DNA of 64,000 nt, taken from the UHGV virus genome UHGV-0091736; one strand, 5' to 3'. The translations under genes were made by a program, and so were the position numbers. The notes under the pieces are model-generated. The model worked only from the letters and a program-made list of their open reading frames with translations. It was not told the origin of the DNA and made no database searches. Numbering within the stretch: position 1 is the first letter of the stretch; every line of letters starts with the position of its first letter. The DNA is from a virus. Positions 17,123 through 34,570 of this stretch are shown piece after piece.

Positions 17123-19153
17123 TTAACCTCTATTCAATGAACATTTAGGAGAATTACAATAAACTTGATTCATAGAACCAAGCGTACAACTTTCAGCATC
17201 GCGCCACGGAATCTGCTTAAAACACTCTGAGCAGTATCCGAGGGTTGACCACATGGCTTTGGTGAAGTCAGTGCTTCGGTTTCCGTCGAAGCTGACAACA
17301 GTTTTGCGGAGAGCTGTTCGTGATTCAGGAAACACACCTGCTTTCTCAGCAGGTTCCTCCTTTTTTGGCTTAGTTGAGATTGCAAAAATACTGTTGCTAC
17401 GTTTCTCAACATAAGCATCAACAACATCCTCCAGAGTGATGCCTGTTTGTTTCGCTGAGGAAGGTAATACAGTCATACGACCAATCATTTCTTCAGTTAC
17501 ACGTAAAGCAAACTCAGGACGACGGGTGTTTGTTGTATCTGTTGCTTTAATCCAGACATAACCATCTTTGATCGTAGCATTAGATACTTTCTTCTTTACT
17601 TCTACAGCGCAGACTTTACAGATATCTTCACCACGAAGACGACTAAGTTCATCATCGAACTCATTCTCTGTTTTAACCTCACCACAGATTTCACAAACAC
17701 CAATAGGAGTCTCCTCCTCTTCTTCCTCTTTAGGTTTAGTCAAACTTTCCAGACACTCTGGATGCCAGTAGCATTGATATGCGAAGACTGCTTTAGGTGC
17801 ATCCTTCCAATCAATGTGCTTGTCACAACCACCACAATCACCATGAGAGTGTGCTTCCCAGAATTTACGAGTGATAGTAACGCCATTCTTGTTGACGAAA
17901 CTATCATTCATATCAAAAGGGATATCATCATCAAAATCAGCAGTAGTTGACTCAGGCTCCTTTTTCTCCAGAGATGGGTCAACAAAACGACCTGCTGTGA
18001 TCACTAAACGAACCATAGCATTGACTTCGGAGATGCAGGATACTGTCCCACGGTAAACAATTTTAGGGTCTTTCAGGGCATCCTGATAGGCCTTAATGTC
18101 TACGTTATGAACATCACCTTCGATATACTCTTGAGATTTCTCATCGTAGATATAACCAATCATCTTACCACGAGAAGGGACAGCACCAGAAGTTGCATAA
18201 GGAACAAACTCATGCGGAGTGATTTCCACAGTCATGTCGCGGCGAATATCAATGTTTCGATCGCTTGCGATTTTGTTTTGACTTACCACTGCGTTTCTTC
18301 GACGAACATCTGCCGCCGTCACCCCCGGCTTCGTGTCGTAAGGATTGCTTGTACTGCTTTTTGAGGAGCTTTGATAGTTGCTTTGGCTGTAGTTGTTCGA
18401 GTAGTAACTGGCCCAACGATTGACTACCGTAAAAACCGGAAGCTCATGGGCGACCTCTTCAACCAGTGTCATGCTGTTATTTGACATGTCAAAGATGTAC
18501 TCTGTACCAACCTTACATTCAAAATGCTCATCAATGCGGTTCTTGTGAGACTTCGAACGCTTCAGAATCCACATCAGCATATCTTCTTCAGAAGCACCAA
18601 ACCAATCTTTATTACAACGTGCGAGATGGAAAGGACGTTCTTCGTTACGAATAATATGAAGCCGGTTATCAGAAGCATCATGCCAGATTAAAGTGAAAGC
18701 ACCATCCAACTTTTGAATAGTCTCTGCTGCACCAATGGTGTTAATAGAGTGGCAGATGTTCTCGCTGTCTACCTCGAAGTTTTTACTGTCAGGTAACAGG
18801 TCTTGGTCAATCAAGGTTCCGTTATGAACCAGAGTGATGTTACCGTGTTGGAAAGGATGGGCGTTCTTGGCGTTAACTGCACCTTTCGTTGCATGACGGC
18901 TGTGACCAACAATCCATGAAGGTGCTACAGTGTAAGATGTTTCACCAGTGGTATGCTTCTTATACTCATCTTGTAGGATGAATGCGAAAGAAGGAAGGGC
19001 TTCTTTATAAGTGAAGACCTCCTTAGTGCTCTTACGCTGACCAAAGATACCAGAAGAATGTTGTCCTCGGAATACCCCAGCATAAAAGAGTTGGTTGAAT
19101 ACGTCTAAATCGGTGCTTGACAGATTACCGCCAGCTAATACGATGCCACAAAT
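17123..19153 (-). CDS. class II (Ntn) glutamine amidotransferase domain protein with Cys-rich zinc-ribbon C-terminal region; non-ATG start
   Basis: Open frame upstream of track ORF encodes CGIVLAGG...RGQHSSGI...GHSRHATKG...HPF...LVHNG; conserved Cys preceded by ATT with SD AGGTGGA 7 nt upstream and an in-frame TAG. Confidence 0.6.
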   Translation of the reverse strand: MCGIVLAGGNLSSTDLDVFNQLFYAGVFRGQHSSGIFGQRKSTKEVFTYKEALPSFAFILQDEYKKHTTGETSYTVAPSWIVGHSRHATKGAVNAKNAHPFQHGNITLVHNGTLIDQDLLPDSKNFEVDSENICHSINTIGAAETIQKLDGAFTLIWHDASDNRLHIIRNEERPFHLARCNKDWFGASEEDMLMWILKRSKSHKNRIDEHFECKVGTEYIFDMSNNSMTLVEEVAHELPVFTVVNRWASYYSNNYSQSNYQSSSKSSTSNPYDTKPGVTAADVRRRNAVVSQNKIASDRNIDIRRDMTVEITPHEFVPYATSGAVPSRGKMIGYIYDEKSQEYIEGDVHNVDIKAYQDALKDPKIVYRGTVSCISEVNAMVRLVITAGRFVDPSLEKKEPESTTADFDDDIPFDMNDSFVNKNGVTITRKFWEAHSHGDCGGCDKHIDWKDAPKAVFAYQCYWHPECLESLTKPKEEEEEETPIGVCEICGEVKTENEFDDELSRLRGEDICKVCAVEVKKKVSNATIKDGYVWIKATDTTNTRRPEFALRVTEEMIGRMTVLPSSAKQTGITLEDVVDAYVEKRSNSIFAISTKPKKEEPAEKAGVFPESRTALRKTVVSFDGNRSTDFTKAMWSTLGYCSECFKQIPWRDAESCTLGSMNQVYCNSPKCSLNRG

Positions 19154-19232
19154 TTTCTAATCCACCTGAAGGGTAAACCCTTTCATCTAATTAACCTTTA
19201 AATTGTGCCCCTTTACCAGAGGCACCCATTGA

Positions 19233-20336
19233 TTACAGCGCTTGTTCTAACTGGTTTTCCAAATGGTCTGGAATGTACCCTGTGATATTGCTATCACTGT
19301 GACCTGACTCACGCAGCAAGTCAAAAATAGCACGGACACGTTGTTCTGGAGCGTGTCTTACTTGAGACAGGTCAGTTGTACTAAGCATAACCAGAATCTC
19401 TTGGTACAAGCTGTTAGCATTCCCTCGAACATATCCAAGGAATCCATAGAAGTCTGGAATAAGACGTAAGTCAACAAGAGCTTCTCCGTTTGGGTTGGTT
19501 CGTCGTAAACGAATACGACCAGACTGCTCTACTTCATGAGAACGGCAATACAAAACATCACGGGCCATACAATATCCTGAATGCAAATCCAACTCATCCA
19601 GATTGTAATCCAGAGGGAGATAAGGGAGCATTGGAGTGAATCGTACAGTATTTAAATGCTCAACAAACTGATCATTGCTCATATCTGCGTTATCTAAAGC
19701 CAGCTTCTTCAACATCAAGAAACGGTTAACCAAATTGAGAAGTTGACCACGTTTCCACTTAGGCTCACTGATACGGAACTCAATCGAACCATATTGGGCA
19801 AGTGGCAGAAGGTTCAGAGATGTGTATTTATCCCATGAACGAACCAGACGGTTGAAGAATTCTTCACCATCGTAGTTAAATGCGTCAGAGGCATTCATCA
19901 CCTGTGCTTGTACCACTGCAAACGCAGGGCAGAAGTTGCTACGGTAACGATGGTAGCCCGAACACTTGAACAACATCTTTTCATAGAAGGTCCAAGCGAG
20001 AATGGTTTTCTTGAGGATATTACTATCAGCATCCCTCATATCCATATGAACGTGAGTAGAGCAACGCCAAGTCCCCTCGGCGTGCGATTCAGCTACTGCT
20101 TCACTCAGGTTGTTGATAGCGTCTAACAACTCCTGTCCATTGTAAGGCCGTGAACATACCATTTCACAACCATTACGCAGGGAACCATCCTCTGTACAAT
20201 CCCACATATCTGCTTCGATATGATCGGAACCTTCGAGTTCAAGTTCAATACCGACACCGCACTGAAGTGCAATTGAACTATGCTCCTCAGTTAAACGACC
20301 TTCTCGATATCCAAAAGTTTGCGCTACAGTTGTCAT
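19233..20336 (-). CDS. COOH-NH2 ligase / amidoligase-like (glutamine synthetase / GCS2-like fold)
   Basis: 367 aa; N-terminal GVGIELELEG resembles carboxylate-amine ligase GxExE strand. Confidence 0.45.
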   Translation of the reverse strand: MTTVAQTFGYREGRLTEEHSSIALQCGVGIELELEGSDHIEADMWDCTEDGSLRNGCEMVCSRPYNGQELLDAINNLSEAVAESHAEGTWRCSTHVHMDMRDADSNILKKTILAWTFYEKMLFKCSGYHRYRSNFCPAFAVVQAQVMNASDAFNYDGEEFFNRLVRSWDKYTSLNLLPLAQYGSIEFRISEPKWKRGQLLNLVNRFLMLKKLALDNADMSNDQFVEHLNTVRFTPMLPYLPLDYNLDELDLHSGYCMARDVLYCRSHEVEQSGRIRLRRTNPNGEALVDLRLIPDFYGFLGYVRGNANSLYQEILVMLSTTDLSQVRHAPEQRVRAIFDLLRESGHSDSNITGYIPDHLENQLEQAL

Positions 20337-26356: not shown

Positions 26357-26668
26357 CTATTTAAGTTTGAGGCTAATGTTAAGGTGCATACATGCCCTGT
26401 TCTGTACAGCAGCATAACTTCTACCGAGCATGTCAGCCATTCTCTGAATAGACATGAACCCAGCATTACGGATAAGGAACTGGTCTTCTTCTTTAGACCA
26501 CTTAACTCGGATTGAAGCTCTTGATATTCCGAATTTAGTACAAGCTGTGTTAACTGCATTCTCCGTTACATTCATAATCTGAGCAACTTCTTGAACCGAG
26601 TACTCTTTGATTAGTCTCCGAAGATTTTCAATCTGCATCGGAGTCCATATAGTTCTTCGAGCTTTCAT
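26357..26668 (-). CDS. putative DNA-binding protein with two tandem HTH-like repeats
   Basis: 103 aa; WTPMQIENLRRLIKEYSVQEVAQIMNVTENAV and WSKEEDQFLIRNAGFMSIQRMADMLGRSYAAV. Confidence 0.45.
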   Translation of the reverse strand: MKARRTIWTPMQIENLRRLIKEYSVQEVAQIMNVTENAVNTACTKFGISRASIRVKWSKEEDQFLIRNAGFMSIQRMADMLGRSYAAVQNRACMHLNISLKLK

Positions 26669-26983
26669 ACATCCTCCAATTAAACATTTATATAAGACTT
26701 GCTTAGATAAAGATTCAATAAAATAGGGGGAGGGGACGAATCCTCCCTTATCCTATTAGTCAATATTGCATGTAAGATCTAACAATCGGTTGCCTTTGTA
26801 GGAATAAGCGTTATGCTAATCCAGCACTAAACTCCCGCCCCCTTAGTGGGCTGGGTTATTAAAGGGTAACGCCCTTATGGGCTAGTTACATGAATGTTAG
26901 TTTGATAGGAGATCTGAAGTCCTATCTCAAAGGACTCTCGTAAGAATCCTTCACGATAGTCACGCTTTGAGCGTGGTAGCTCC

Positions 26984-27205
26984 TTAGTAAACTAAACCTA
27001 CAGCCTTAGCATCAGGCTGAGGGACCACCTTTGCGCTAGGGCGATAACCATCCACTGAACCATTCCAAAGATTGACACAGGTGATATATCCATCGTTTAT
27101 GATGTCTGTTTTAATCCAGAAGTGTTTATCATGACCAAAAATACTTCCGTTTGGCAGTGTGGACAGCTCAACGGTTTTAAGTGACTGCTTAGAGTCTAGT
27201 TTCAT
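26984..27205 (-). CDS. small paralog-family protein
   Basis: 73 aa; VELSTLPNGSIFGHDKHFWIK...CVNLWNGSV. Confidence 0.5.
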   Translation of the reverse strand: MKLDSKQSLKTVELSTLPNGSIFGHDKHFWIKTDIINDGYITCVNLWNGSVDGYRPSAKVVPQPDAKAVGLVY

Positions 27206-27762: not shown

Positions 27763-27867
27763 AACTACCTCCTATTTGATTTGGCGCACCGTGTAGGACT
27801 CCAACCTACAACCTATTTCTTAGAAGGAAATTGCTCTCTGCAATTGAGCTAACGGCGCTTATTTCAG

Positions 27868-32846: not shown

Positions 32847-33755
32847 TTATGCCGCTTGACGTGCTGCCATAATCTCAGCTGCCTTGCGTAATACTTCTTC
32901 TTCTTCTGCTTTCGCCGCTTGTTCAGTACGGGTAGCAACCGTTGAAGAGATACGACCGCGCAGGTTATCTAACTTCTCCTGCATAGCTGAAACAGCTTTT
33001 TCCATTTCATCAGCATAGGAGTCTAGAGATTCCAGTTCCTTGCTTGATGCGTTCATCAGATAATCATCGGAGATCGCTACCGTTGAAGCCGTAACTTTCT
33101 TGATGAGTGAGTCGAAAGACTTTTTAACCTTCCCAACTTCTTCACTCAAGGCAATAGTGTTATCGCTAGTTGCGCCGTTGCGCTCATCTGCCAGCAATTT
33201 AGATTCAATACGGATGGCATTCAAGCGTTCAACCAAAGCGTAAATATCTTGGTTAAAATCTTCCTTGTTTTTCGCCGGAATTTGCAGGTGTGCCGCCACG
33301 TTGTCATTGCAACCTTTGTAGAAGTTAGGATTATCCACTTCAATTGCACGACCTAAAGCAAAGTTTTCGAAAGCATTTGACCAGCGAGCGCGGTTTTGTT
33401 CCATTTTGGTTTTAATTTGCGCTTCTTTCGCATCTTCTTTCGCTTTCGCTTCACCTTCCAGATTAATCCACTTCTTACGACCGTTCGCCGCATCAGTGTT
33501 AAACTTGATAGGAGTTAAGAAAGTGATCGCGGTAGAAATAACATCCATATCGCGGAAACGTTCAGTTAACAGAAAATCAACAGCCGCTTGTAATACGTCC
33601 AGCTTCTTACCGTTGCTGCGGAAGTGCTGTAAGTGCCCTAACAGGAAGTTAGAAACATCTTGCTTAATCGCTGCGTTATTGCTGCGGATGTTGTTAGCCA
33701 GAGCGTTAAAACCAGATTCGTTAACCAGATTAAAGATTTTAGCCATGATATTCAC
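32847..33755 (-). CDS. hypothetical protein (first gene downstream of long non-coding region)
   Basis: 302 aa helical ORF; SD AAAGGTGA. Confidence 0.55.
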   Translation of the reverse strand: MNIMAKIFNLVNESGFNALANNIRSNNAAIKQDVSNFLLGHLQHFRSNGKKLDVLQAAVDFLLTERFRDMDVISTAITFLTPIKFNTDAANGRKKWINLEGEAKAKEDAKEAQIKTKMEQNRARWSNAFENFALGRAIEVDNPNFYKGCNDNVAAHLQIPAKNKEDFNQDIYALVERLNAIRIESKLLADERNGATSDNTIALSEEVGKVKKSFDSLIKKVTASTVAISDDYLMNASSKELESLDSYADEMEKAVSAMQEKLDNLRGRISSTVATRTEQAAKAEEEEVLRKAAEIMAARQAA

Positions 33756-34570
33756 CTTTCAATTGTAAGGGCGCTATTGCCCCGCTCTCTATGAGCTTGT
33801 TTAAGTCACTATTAACTTAACTCTAACCACTCACTTTTTAAGTAGTTACAGGTAAGCGGGGCGGTCTTATCAGGAGTTAACCTTGCCGCCCCCTTATCCG
33901 TGATGTTTCATCTGGTATCTTTAATTAGTCGCTATAAATAAAGCCGACCTGATAGCGATGATCAATCATCACAATAAGGCAGTGCGTCCGACTCTAATTA
34001 GTTACGTTTATTGTAACCGTCGGCAATATCGTCTACTTTGCTTTCGCTCTCGCCTATCCTTTTGTATTAACTCTCAATCGCTAGTCATCGCCCACTACGG
34101 GATACTATTGCGAAAGAGTCATTAACCGTCTAATATTCCGACGTTTTATATCTTTCAGCGAGTTTACTACATAAACCGACTATGTACTTTCATCATAAGA
34201 CGAATCTCAAGCCGTTCACATCGTAAACGTTCACACTAAACCTTATTGTTAAATAGCAATTTGCCACTTTTTAACCGCTCCCCGCCGCCCTCAATTGGGC
34301 GTTAATTTGTCGGACTTGTCTACCCTGATTAACTTCTTTCACTGTAGCGCCTTGTTAGCGATGACCGCCGCTACCCTTAACCGTGGGCGATTAGCTTAAG
34401 CCTTTGCGTGCACTCAGTGAATCCGTTTATCAGTGGTGACGTTTCCAGTAAGGGATTGCAAGACTGTTTCCTCTGATAGTTTAGAGAGCCTTACATCGTT
34501 TTATCTGGTACGCTTTCCGATGGTTATTATCATCAAGCATATTCAACCGATATAGAAGAACGTTTAAATT

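Follow-up and report, generated by a model that had tools for sequence, protein, structure and literature searches.

An AUU codon as the probable translation start of an N-terminal-nucleophile amidotransferase gene in phiEco32-like coliphages

Where does translation begin in a gene whose product needs cysteine as its first mature residue, when no canonical start codon precedes that cysteine? The question is raised by a class II (N-terminal nucleophile, Ntn; PurF-type) glutamine amidotransferase gene on the minus strand of virus genome UHGV-0091736, of which a stretch of 64,000 nucleotides (nt), called here the window, was analysed. The phage is a phiEco32-like coliphage (Kuravirus, Gordonclarkvirinae), with ~96% nucleotide identity to phiEco32 across the amidotransferase locus, and the gene is the homologue of phiEco32 phi32_83. 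Genes for the class II enzymes GlmS, PurF and AsnB start with ATG-TGY. In the window the Cys codon follows an ATT; an in-frame TAG lies two codons upstream of this ATT, and no ATG, GTG or TTG occurs between TAG and Cys. A preliminary description of the locus left four options unranked: initiation at ATT, recoding of the stop codon, a pseudogene and a sequencing error. Its coordinates and layout (mini-ORF, that is a short open reading frame, TAG, Shine–Dalgarno sequence (SD), ATT and Cys) all proved correct when the window was read and translated, on the minus strand. Initiation at ATT is the option that stands; error, pseudogene and recoding fall away. The elements on which the argument turns are the following.

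17123 to 19153, minus strand: class II (Ntn) glutamine amidotransferase gene, from ATT to the stop at 17125-17123, recognized by translation, Pfam, PHROG and annotated relatives.
19151 to 19153, minus strand: ATT, the putative initiation codon (AUU), at the position of ATG in outgroups, with an in-frame TAG 2 codons upstream and an SD 7 nt upstream.
19148 to 19150, minus strand: TGT, the predicted catalytic Cys1 (N-terminal nucleophile), part of an invariant C1-G2 and aligned to Cys1 of GlmS (1xff) and PurF (1ecb).
19161 to 19167, minus strand: AGGTGGA, the SD for ATT, within mini-ORF codons 7-9, with an anti-SD duplex of -5.9 kcal/mol and a spacer to ATT of 7 nt (TTAGAAA).
19157 to 19186, minus strand: 9-codon mini-ORF ATG-MKGFTLQVD-TAG, seen on translation, in frame with the amidotransferase, its TAG 3 nt before ATT.

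The minus strand reads ATG(19186-19184) AAA GGG TTT ACC CTT CAG GTG GAT TAG(19159-19157) AAA ATT(19153-19151) TGT(19150-19148) GGC ATC GTA, and the start region translates as MKGFTLQVD*KICGIVLAGG. Starting at Cys, 675 codons are open before the stop at 17125-17123. Counted from ATT, the gene has 676 codons, a coding sequence (CDS) of 2,031 nt, and loss of the initiator Met would leave a mature protein of 675 amino acids and 76.0 kDa. Downstream of Cys, a canonical in-frame start is first reached at a TTG lying 113 codons in (18814); a start there would therefore lose the catalytic nucleophile.

Comparison with homologous phages, a check that the preliminary description had proposed, strongly supports initiation at ATT from the AGGTGGA SD. 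The nearest outgroups have an ATG directly ahead of the TGY codon for Cys and an SD 7-9 nt upstream of this ATG; they comprise the Grimontviridae phages P59, GAP52, SE131, PKM and SJSY21, Aeromonas phage LAh_9 and a set of IMG/VR contigs sharing 62-66% protein identity. Because this ATG occupies the exact site of the ATT, the ATT is its positional homologue, one substitution away. Of 77 IMG/VR homologues, 60 have ATG directly before Cys, 11 have ATT, 2 have ATC and 4 have TTG, with no other codon found, and five further loci have TTG, GTG, ATT, ATT and TTG. No canonical in-frame start lies between the upstream stop and Cys in nine of 13 ATT/ATC loci, and the SD is exactly 7 nt from the start in 11 of the 13. 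An AUU with an SD at functional spacing, no canonical in-frame alternative and a canonical start in orthologues mark genes of the infC and pcnB type, and the window's locus shows all three, its SD lying 7 nt away; confirmed AUU starts are very rare, and in E. coli these two genes are the only ones (Hecht et al., bioRxiv 10.1101/063800). Collectively, the comparison indicates that the AUU at 19153-19151 is very probably the actual translation start, and that this codon would have arisen by replacement of an ancestral AUG.

Weak starts are scattered among ATG sisters in a neighbour-joining tree of the family, which suggests at least seven switches, a count that is approximate in a tree without support values. 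Even two near-identical proteins differ, L101 starting with TTG and L102 with ATC. The SDs of weak-start loci are stronger than those of ATG loci (-7.6 vs -6.5 kcal/mol; one-sided Mann-Whitney p = 0.004, uncorrected for phylogeny), a modest shift that hints only weakly that stronger SDs offset weak starts. ATT or ATC before the catalytic Cys codon, usually with an SD 7 nt upstream, was seen in several unrelated lineages, especially Zobellviridae-like ones (L018:398-403, L019:398-403, L065, L074, L076, L083, L096, L106, L108, L109, L125 and L127); other lineages have TTG or GTG there.

The gene that follows this start is intact. In a sensitive blastn search, a 62-nt query spanning leader and start matched 99 phage records, 69 at >=99% identity, 28 at 95-99% and 2 at 92%. 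Ninety-seven of them are independently sequenced Gordonclarkvirinae, which differ from the 62 nt by no more than a single change. Aeromonas phage BUCT695 accounts for the two at 92%, being present once in GenBank and once in RefSeq. The identical leader is also carried by 4 IMG/VR contigs and 6 metagenome contigs, and the sole difference within 19140-19201 among the genomes read directly is GGC to GGT at codon 2. Codons 1-112, which are the portion dropped by shortened annotations, have a ratio of non-synonymous to synonymous change (dN/dS) of 0.07-0.09, with synonymous sites near saturation (synonymous difference, pS, 0.65-0.81). Mass spectrometry of phage SU10 recovered 9 peptides of the corresponding protein, gp85, more than for any other early protein in the sample (PMC4281155).

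Domain matches and active-site residues place the product in class II. Pfam GATase_6 is matched with E = 1.6e-14 and 54.5 bits against a cut-off of 27, GATase_7 with 27.5 bits against 25, and PHROG 4736 with E = 1.4e-200, residue 1 of the protein aligning to profile position 2. In an alignment of 17 phage homologues, C1, G2, R28-G29, H83, R85, A87, T88, N110-G111 and D128 are invariant, and the profile of this alignment puts Cys1 on Cys1 of E. coli GlmS and PurF. The glutaminase residues (in GlmS numbering Arg26, Arg73/Thr76, the Asn98-Gly99 oxyanion hole and Asp123) are conserved and align with the GlmS motifs. With a Cys right after the probable start, the active-site residues in place and a curated domain match, the sequence has the marks of a class II enzyme, in which the Cys after ATT is the predicted N-terminal catalytic nucleophile. 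The N-terminal tryptic peptide expected of the full-length Met-less protein is CGIVLAGGNLSSTDLDVFNQLFYAGVFR. GlmS, PurF and AsnB contain the same glutaminase domain, with Cys1 and the catalytic Arg, Asn-Gly and Asp aligned; unlike them, the phage protein is without a SIS, phosphoribosyltransferase (PRTase) or synthetase domain, and the Pfam search found no SIS domain in it. Identity with GlmS is rejected, as NCBIfam PRK00331 gives 42.4 bits against a cut-off of 381 and TIGR01135 36.3 against 418, both matches being confined to the N-terminal domain. No Pfam family was matched by the ~425 C-terminal residues after the glutaminase domain. This C-terminal part (window 17123-17900, minus strand) is Cys-rich, with several Cys-x2-Cys pairs of zinc-ribbon-like appearance, for example CGGCDKH...CYWHPEC, CEICGE...CKVC and CSECFKQ...CNSPKC. 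The phiEco32 gene phi32_83 is the same gene in the same cluster and differs in nothing material.

Other accounts of the missing canonical start fare poorly. A sequencing or assembly error, or a decaying pseudogene, has that absence as its only point in favour. The former is excluded by the recurrence of the sequence in the 97 independent Gordonclarkvirinae records, in IMG/VR and in the 6 metagenome contigs, together with the 92%-identical Aeromonas phage copy; the latter is excluded by the dN/dS of the first 112 codons, the intact catalytic residues and the detection of SU10 gp85, so that the chance of either is negligible. Read-through of the TAG, by suppression or recoding, would yield a 12-residue propeptide (MKGFTLQVD-X-KI) whose autocatalytic removal would expose Cys1, as in B. 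subtilis PurF. The precursor of that enzyme carries a propeptide of 11 residues, the alignment with its solved chains (1ao0, 1gph) begins at residue 1, and the mini-ORF is in frame and of roughly the right length. However, ARAGORN finds no suppressor tRNA in the 64-kb window of the ~77-kb genome, where a tRNA-Arg(TCT) is the only tRNA; TAG terminates 4 of 45 long open reading frames (ORFs), all 45 of which are intact under code 11, so that no long ORF needs recoding. The frame, broken by TAG in the window, is broken by a tandem TAG TAA right before ATT in the relative L125 (59% identical), which does not fit a propeptide-bearing Ntn enzyme. Moreover, the outgroups carry ATG exactly at the ATT position, other ATT/ATC lineages are without any upstream in-frame start, and an internal Ile would allow other sense codons at the ATT site, of which the 77 loci contain none. 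Read-through is thus rejected as very improbable. Also improbable, though slightly less so, is that the only product is an N-terminally shortened protein from an internal canonical start (TTG 18814, or the internal ATG/GTG of Paul, SU7, ECBP2, KBNP1711, EP335 and BUCT695), the Cys-containing stretch being untranslated. Gene callers choose such starts, and the SU10 proteomics table lists a 63.8-kDa shortened form, but 63.8 kDa is a database mass and not a measured one; it fits the shortened 563-aa ORF (63.9 kDa) and not the 76.0-kDa form (PMC4281155). The annotations, for their part, pick differing, non-homologous internal codons, and codons 1-112 are under strong purifying selection and hold the invariant active-site Cys1, Arg28-Gly29, His83, Arg85 and Thr88.

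The region just upstream of the ATT is itself unusually conserved. Three further elements are defined there.

19146 to 19200, minus strand: 55-nt leader, substitution-free in an alignment of 11 genomes (Kuravirus, Suseptimavirus and Nieuwekanaalvirus).
19169 to 19182, minus strand: hairpin A, AAGGG-UUUA-CCCUU, inside the mini-ORF just 5' of the SD, from folding energy.
19195 to 19199, minus strand: AAAGG, a weak SD-like element 8 nt before the mini-ORF ATG, within the invariant run, with an anti-SD duplex of -3.4 kcal/mol.

The 55-nt run (19200-19146) is set against a next longest invariant run of 14 nt in 1,229 aligned columns, and within Gordonclarkvirinae the mini-ORF does not vary at any of the three codon positions. 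Length of identity alone does not make the leader distinctive, since in a genome-wide control it is only the third-longest stretch shared exactly by the window, SU7 and KBNP1711. What sets it apart is its surroundings: the two longer exact stretches and the next one have flanks that are 88-98% identical, and among the seven longest three-way stretches only the leader has low-identity flanks (73-80%), on both sides and in both comparison genomes. The leader motif occurs once in the window. Judged from these alignments, the arrangement is not due to chance.

Hairpin A extends to UGAA.GGG/CCCUUCA (-6.1 kcal/mol), and a competing hairpin B, which would hide the SD, has -6.1 kcal/mol in the window and -2.3 in BUCT695. 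Folding energies of the leader are no better than those of shuffled sequence (z = -0.7 and -1.2). An SD-hiding structure made of the RNAalifold outer stem and hairpin B was rejected, as its energies resemble those of shuffles and BUCT695 breaks both parts; hairpin A alone is retained. No promoter or terminator turned up at the leader when the gene strand was scanned for consensus motifs, and no Rfam family reached its gathering threshold, the only leader hit being at chance level (E = 0.56). The tRNA-Arg(TCT) that ARAGORN places at window 27782-27858 (minus strand) was found, yet the whole-window Rfam scan was silent even for the tRNA family. The hexamer ATTAGA occurs twice in the leader (window 19154-19191, minus strand), just before the mini-ORF ATG and overlapping the mini-ORF TAG, a repeat which hints that the cassette arose by duplication of a ribosome-binding region.

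Natural variants of the leader are few. Searches of metagenome and IMG/VR contigs returned identical copies only, and the variants came from genome contigs (L125) and from sensitive blastn (BUCT695). BUCT695, a phage of the Grimontviridae with an Aeromonas host and an enzyme 51% identical to that of the window, reads ATG AAA GGG TTA ACC CTT CAG GCG GAT TAG AAA ATT TGT. It keeps the 9-codon length (MKGLTLQAD), the UAG, the 3-nt gap and the AUU. Both of its substitutions are non-synonymous (F to L, V to A). Its SD, AGGCGGA, has a computed strength equal to that of the window; hairpin A is changed in the loop only, with unchanged energy, and hairpin B loses two pairs. In L125 the upstream ORF is of at least 73 codons and helix-turn-helix-like; it runs in the same frame through the leader, has CTG where the mini-ORF ATG would be, and ends GAT TAG TAA ATT TGC. 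Hairpin A is one pair longer there (AAGGGA-UUUA-UCCCUU, -7.1 kcal/mol). Gordonclarkvirinae, BUCT695 and L125 thus have in common hairpin A, the SD, an A-rich spacer and a frame that terminates at one and the same UAG, 3 nt ahead of AUU; the peptide sequence of the mini-ORF is not preserved across the three lineages. The cassette is absent from L025, L026 and L035, which all start with ATG and are closer to the window's enzyme (62-66% identity) than BUCT695. Its presence in BUCT695 but not in these three therefore implies several losses or horizontal transfer.

In BUCT695 (L133:700-900) and in L125 (L125:1-219), the space between amidoligase gene and leader holds unannotated remnants of homing-endonuclease-like (HNH/helix-turn-helix) genes, which include CWLWTGCINSDGYP and LSQSKVAKLVGCSQTHVSKLELGKY. 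The gene is split by a frameshift in BUCT695; in L125 it continues in frame through the leader as far as the TAG TAA ahead of ATT. Homing-associated co-conversion is a candidate route of cassette transfer. L125 is one of four scaffolds (L123-L126; Herbiconiux daphne NZ_JANLCJ01, 560-924 nt) that carry four different phage-type amidotransferase genes with 48-64% identity to the query, and these scaffolds are probably phage or metagenomic contamination of this actinobacterial assembly.

How would the AUU be used? The 30S subunit would be placed by the AGGUGGA SD, 7 nt upstream of AUU, and initiator tRNA would read this codon, giving a product that begins fMet-Cys. Deformylase and methionine aminopeptidase would then remove Met, as they do for ordinary class II amidotransferases encoded from ATG-TGY; the same exposure of the cysteine is proposed for the phage protein, in which the predicted Met removal would leave Cys1 as N-terminal nucleophile. 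The cassette would add to this start. Its order is a weak ribosome-binding site, a 9-codon mini-ORF containing hairpin and SD, UAG, 3 nt and AUU, and its most likely role would be to deliver terminating ribosomes beside the weak start, so that reinitiation supplements de novo initiation. The outcome would be a controlled, limited and possibly IF3-sensitive enzyme level. The layout of the junction is that of termination-reinitiation sites, with UAG AAA AUU following an SD in mini-ORF codons 7-9, and is kept in BUCT695 and L125. Taken as a whole, AUU initiation of an intact gene with Met removal and cassette-aided reinitiation is the best explanation of the locus, with a probability of about 0.8. 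A role for mini-ORF translation or reinitiation, taken separately, is put forward tentatively and at somewhat below even odds.

The closest parallel is the thrS-infC junction of E. coli. UAA GGU AUU at this junction and UAG AAA AUU in the phage both consist of a stop codon, a 3-nt gap and AUU, and in both the SD lies inside the preceding reading frame. This frame is the full gene thrS in E. coli, and a 9-codon mini-ORF in the phages, with a full gene in L125 only. The spacer is A/U-rich. The phage product, unlike that of infC, is an enzyme needing Cys as its first mature residue, and with respect to the autoregulation of infC (IF3) the likeness is limited to the junction geometry, as read from sequence. 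In infC-type junctions with a stop, 3 nt and AUU, reinitiation and de novo initiation contribute about equally (Osterman et al., PMC3592434). The phage locus can also be likened to E. coli pcnB, where an inefficient AUU start holds the enzyme low. To our knowledge, pcnB has no conserved mini-ORF cassette. Orthologues of pcnB switch between canonical and weak start codons (bioRxiv 10.1101/063800), and the phage amidotransferase family likewise alternates between the two.

Several observations weigh against the proposed scheme. AUU is a poor initiator, yet the protein is readily detected: initiation at AUU, AUC, AUA and CUG is 1-2% of that at AUG (Hecht et al., bioRxiv 10.1101/063800), and AUU was found elsewhere to be 6-8 times weaker than AUG (Osterman et al., PMC3592434). 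The SU10 peptides were matched only to the shortened prediction, and so demonstrate expression and leave the N-terminus uninformed. As to coupling, the ribosome-binding site of the mini-ORF is weak (-3.4 kcal/mol), and invariance of the leader makes coding and RNA-level constraint inseparable. Upstream ORFs tightly abut the start at 3 of 23 weak-start loci and at 20 of 58 ATG loci; therefore, coupling is not a general partner of weak starts.

The AUU could also be the start while the mini-ORF is not functionally translated, the leader being conserved for a role as RNA or as a protein-binding site (hairpin A might present the SD, for instance, or a phage translational repressor might use the leader as its operator) or spread by homing-endonuclease-associated gene conversion. 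This is a minority possibility. Invariance at all three codon positions of the mini-ORF exceeds coding constraint, both BUCT695 substitutions alter the peptide, L125 has CTG at the ATG site, the mini-ORF ribosome-binding site is weak, and hairpin A is kept in all three lineages, all of which would suit an RNA element. Against it, each of these lineages has an open frame closed by the shared UAG 3 nt ahead of AUU; BUCT695 keeps the exact 9-codon length and the L125 upstream gene reads to the same stop, which points to termination at UAG as the preserved feature. Neither the Rfam search nor the comparison of folding energies with shuffles lends support to a structured element. Gene conversion would suit the patchiness of the cassette on the protein tree (BUCT695 has it at 51% identity, and L025, L026 and L035 lack it at 62-66%) and the homing-endonuclease-like ORF remnants directly upstream in BUCT695 and L125.

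A further extension of the AUU reading, speculative and rather unlikely in its full form, is that the cassette is a dedicated, horizontally mobile module of translational control and that weak AUU, AUC and UUG starts are actively selected in phage Ntn amidotransferases. Such a module may use termination-reinitiation at a weak start to meter the enzyme, and could respond to IF3 or to the state of the ribosomes in the infected cell. Selection for weak starts, which occur in 17 of the 77 sampled loci, may reflect harm from excess free glutaminase or a need for enzyme stoichiometry.

Database records treat the gene inconsistently. The CDS is annotated from ATT (2,031 nt) in the records of phiEco32 (2008), SU10 and the BASEL phages Bas89 and Bas90, so the ATT start as such is not new and is already present in the annotation of the type phage. 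At least seven inspected records (Paul, SU7, ECBP2, KBNP1711, EP335, PAS59 and BUCT695) start internally and lose the catalytic Cys, and the homologous genes of Klebsiella phage VR7901 and Pseudomonas phage O4 (Zobellviridae) are likewise begun internally, with the Cys deleted. The loci behind these mis-started records (L003, L005-L009, L018, L019 and L133) use an internal ATG, GTG or TTG. Many records name the gene GlmS or 'L-glutamine-D-fructose-6-phosphate aminotransferase'. A literature search turned up no paper on the ATT start of this amidotransferase, the primary phiEco32 papers (Savalia 2008, Pavlova 2012) being outside its reach. What may be new is the infC-like mini-ORF cassette with its extreme conservation, its occurrence in the distantly related Aeromonas phage BUCT695, and the recurrence of AUU, AUC and UUG starts in the phage amidotransferase family. 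Anchoring the start on the Cys codon would mend a whole family of database entries. Because the Cys fixes where an Ntn enzyme must start, the family exposes non-canonical starts that gene callers miss elsewhere. The locus is also a naturally replicated AUU case, with a near-invariant infC-like junction in ~100 coliphages that is kept in an Aeromonas phage, and phage Ntn amidotransferases offer a convenient system for asking how phages use weak start codons to tune translation, and why.

Two further features lie upstream of the leader.

19205 to 19225, minus strand: stem-loop GUGCCUCU-GGUAA-AGGGGCAC, between the amidoligase stop and the leader, recognized by compensatory changes.
19233 to 20336, minus strand: upstream amidoligase gene (Pfam Amidoligase_2), with its stop TAA at 19235-19233.

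Between genera, two pairs of the stem-loop have changed in a compensatory way (U-A to C-G and C-G to U-A). It has no U-tract, hence is no canonical intrinsic terminator, was not picked up by the terminator scan, and may be an element of RNA stability or processing instead. The amidotransferase and amidoligase genes belong to an early-gene enzyme cluster with Amidoligase_2, COOH-NH2_lig and ATP-grasp genes.

The motif TTTAAATGTAA occurs ~20-30 nt upstream of the amidotransferase start in L011, L014, L015, L025, L026 and L133, which are relatives outside the phiEco32 group and mostly have ATG starts; BUCT695 pairs the motif with the ATT cassette. Within it lies AATGTA, which has been reported as the core of the gp36-dependent middle and late promoters of phiEco32 (PMC12276001). 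The phiEco32 group has TTTAAAGGTTAA as the homologous stretch, with the AATGTA core lost.

Elsewhere in the window, clusters of exact stretches in common with SU7 and KBNP1711 lie at 26380-26960 and 33400-34400, reaching 58 nt in the three-way comparison and ~100 nt pairwise. The ORF list has a single entry of at least 40 amino acids around the two longest of the three-way stretches (26700-27100 and 33800-34400), and the clusters may be conserved non-coding or regulatory regions.

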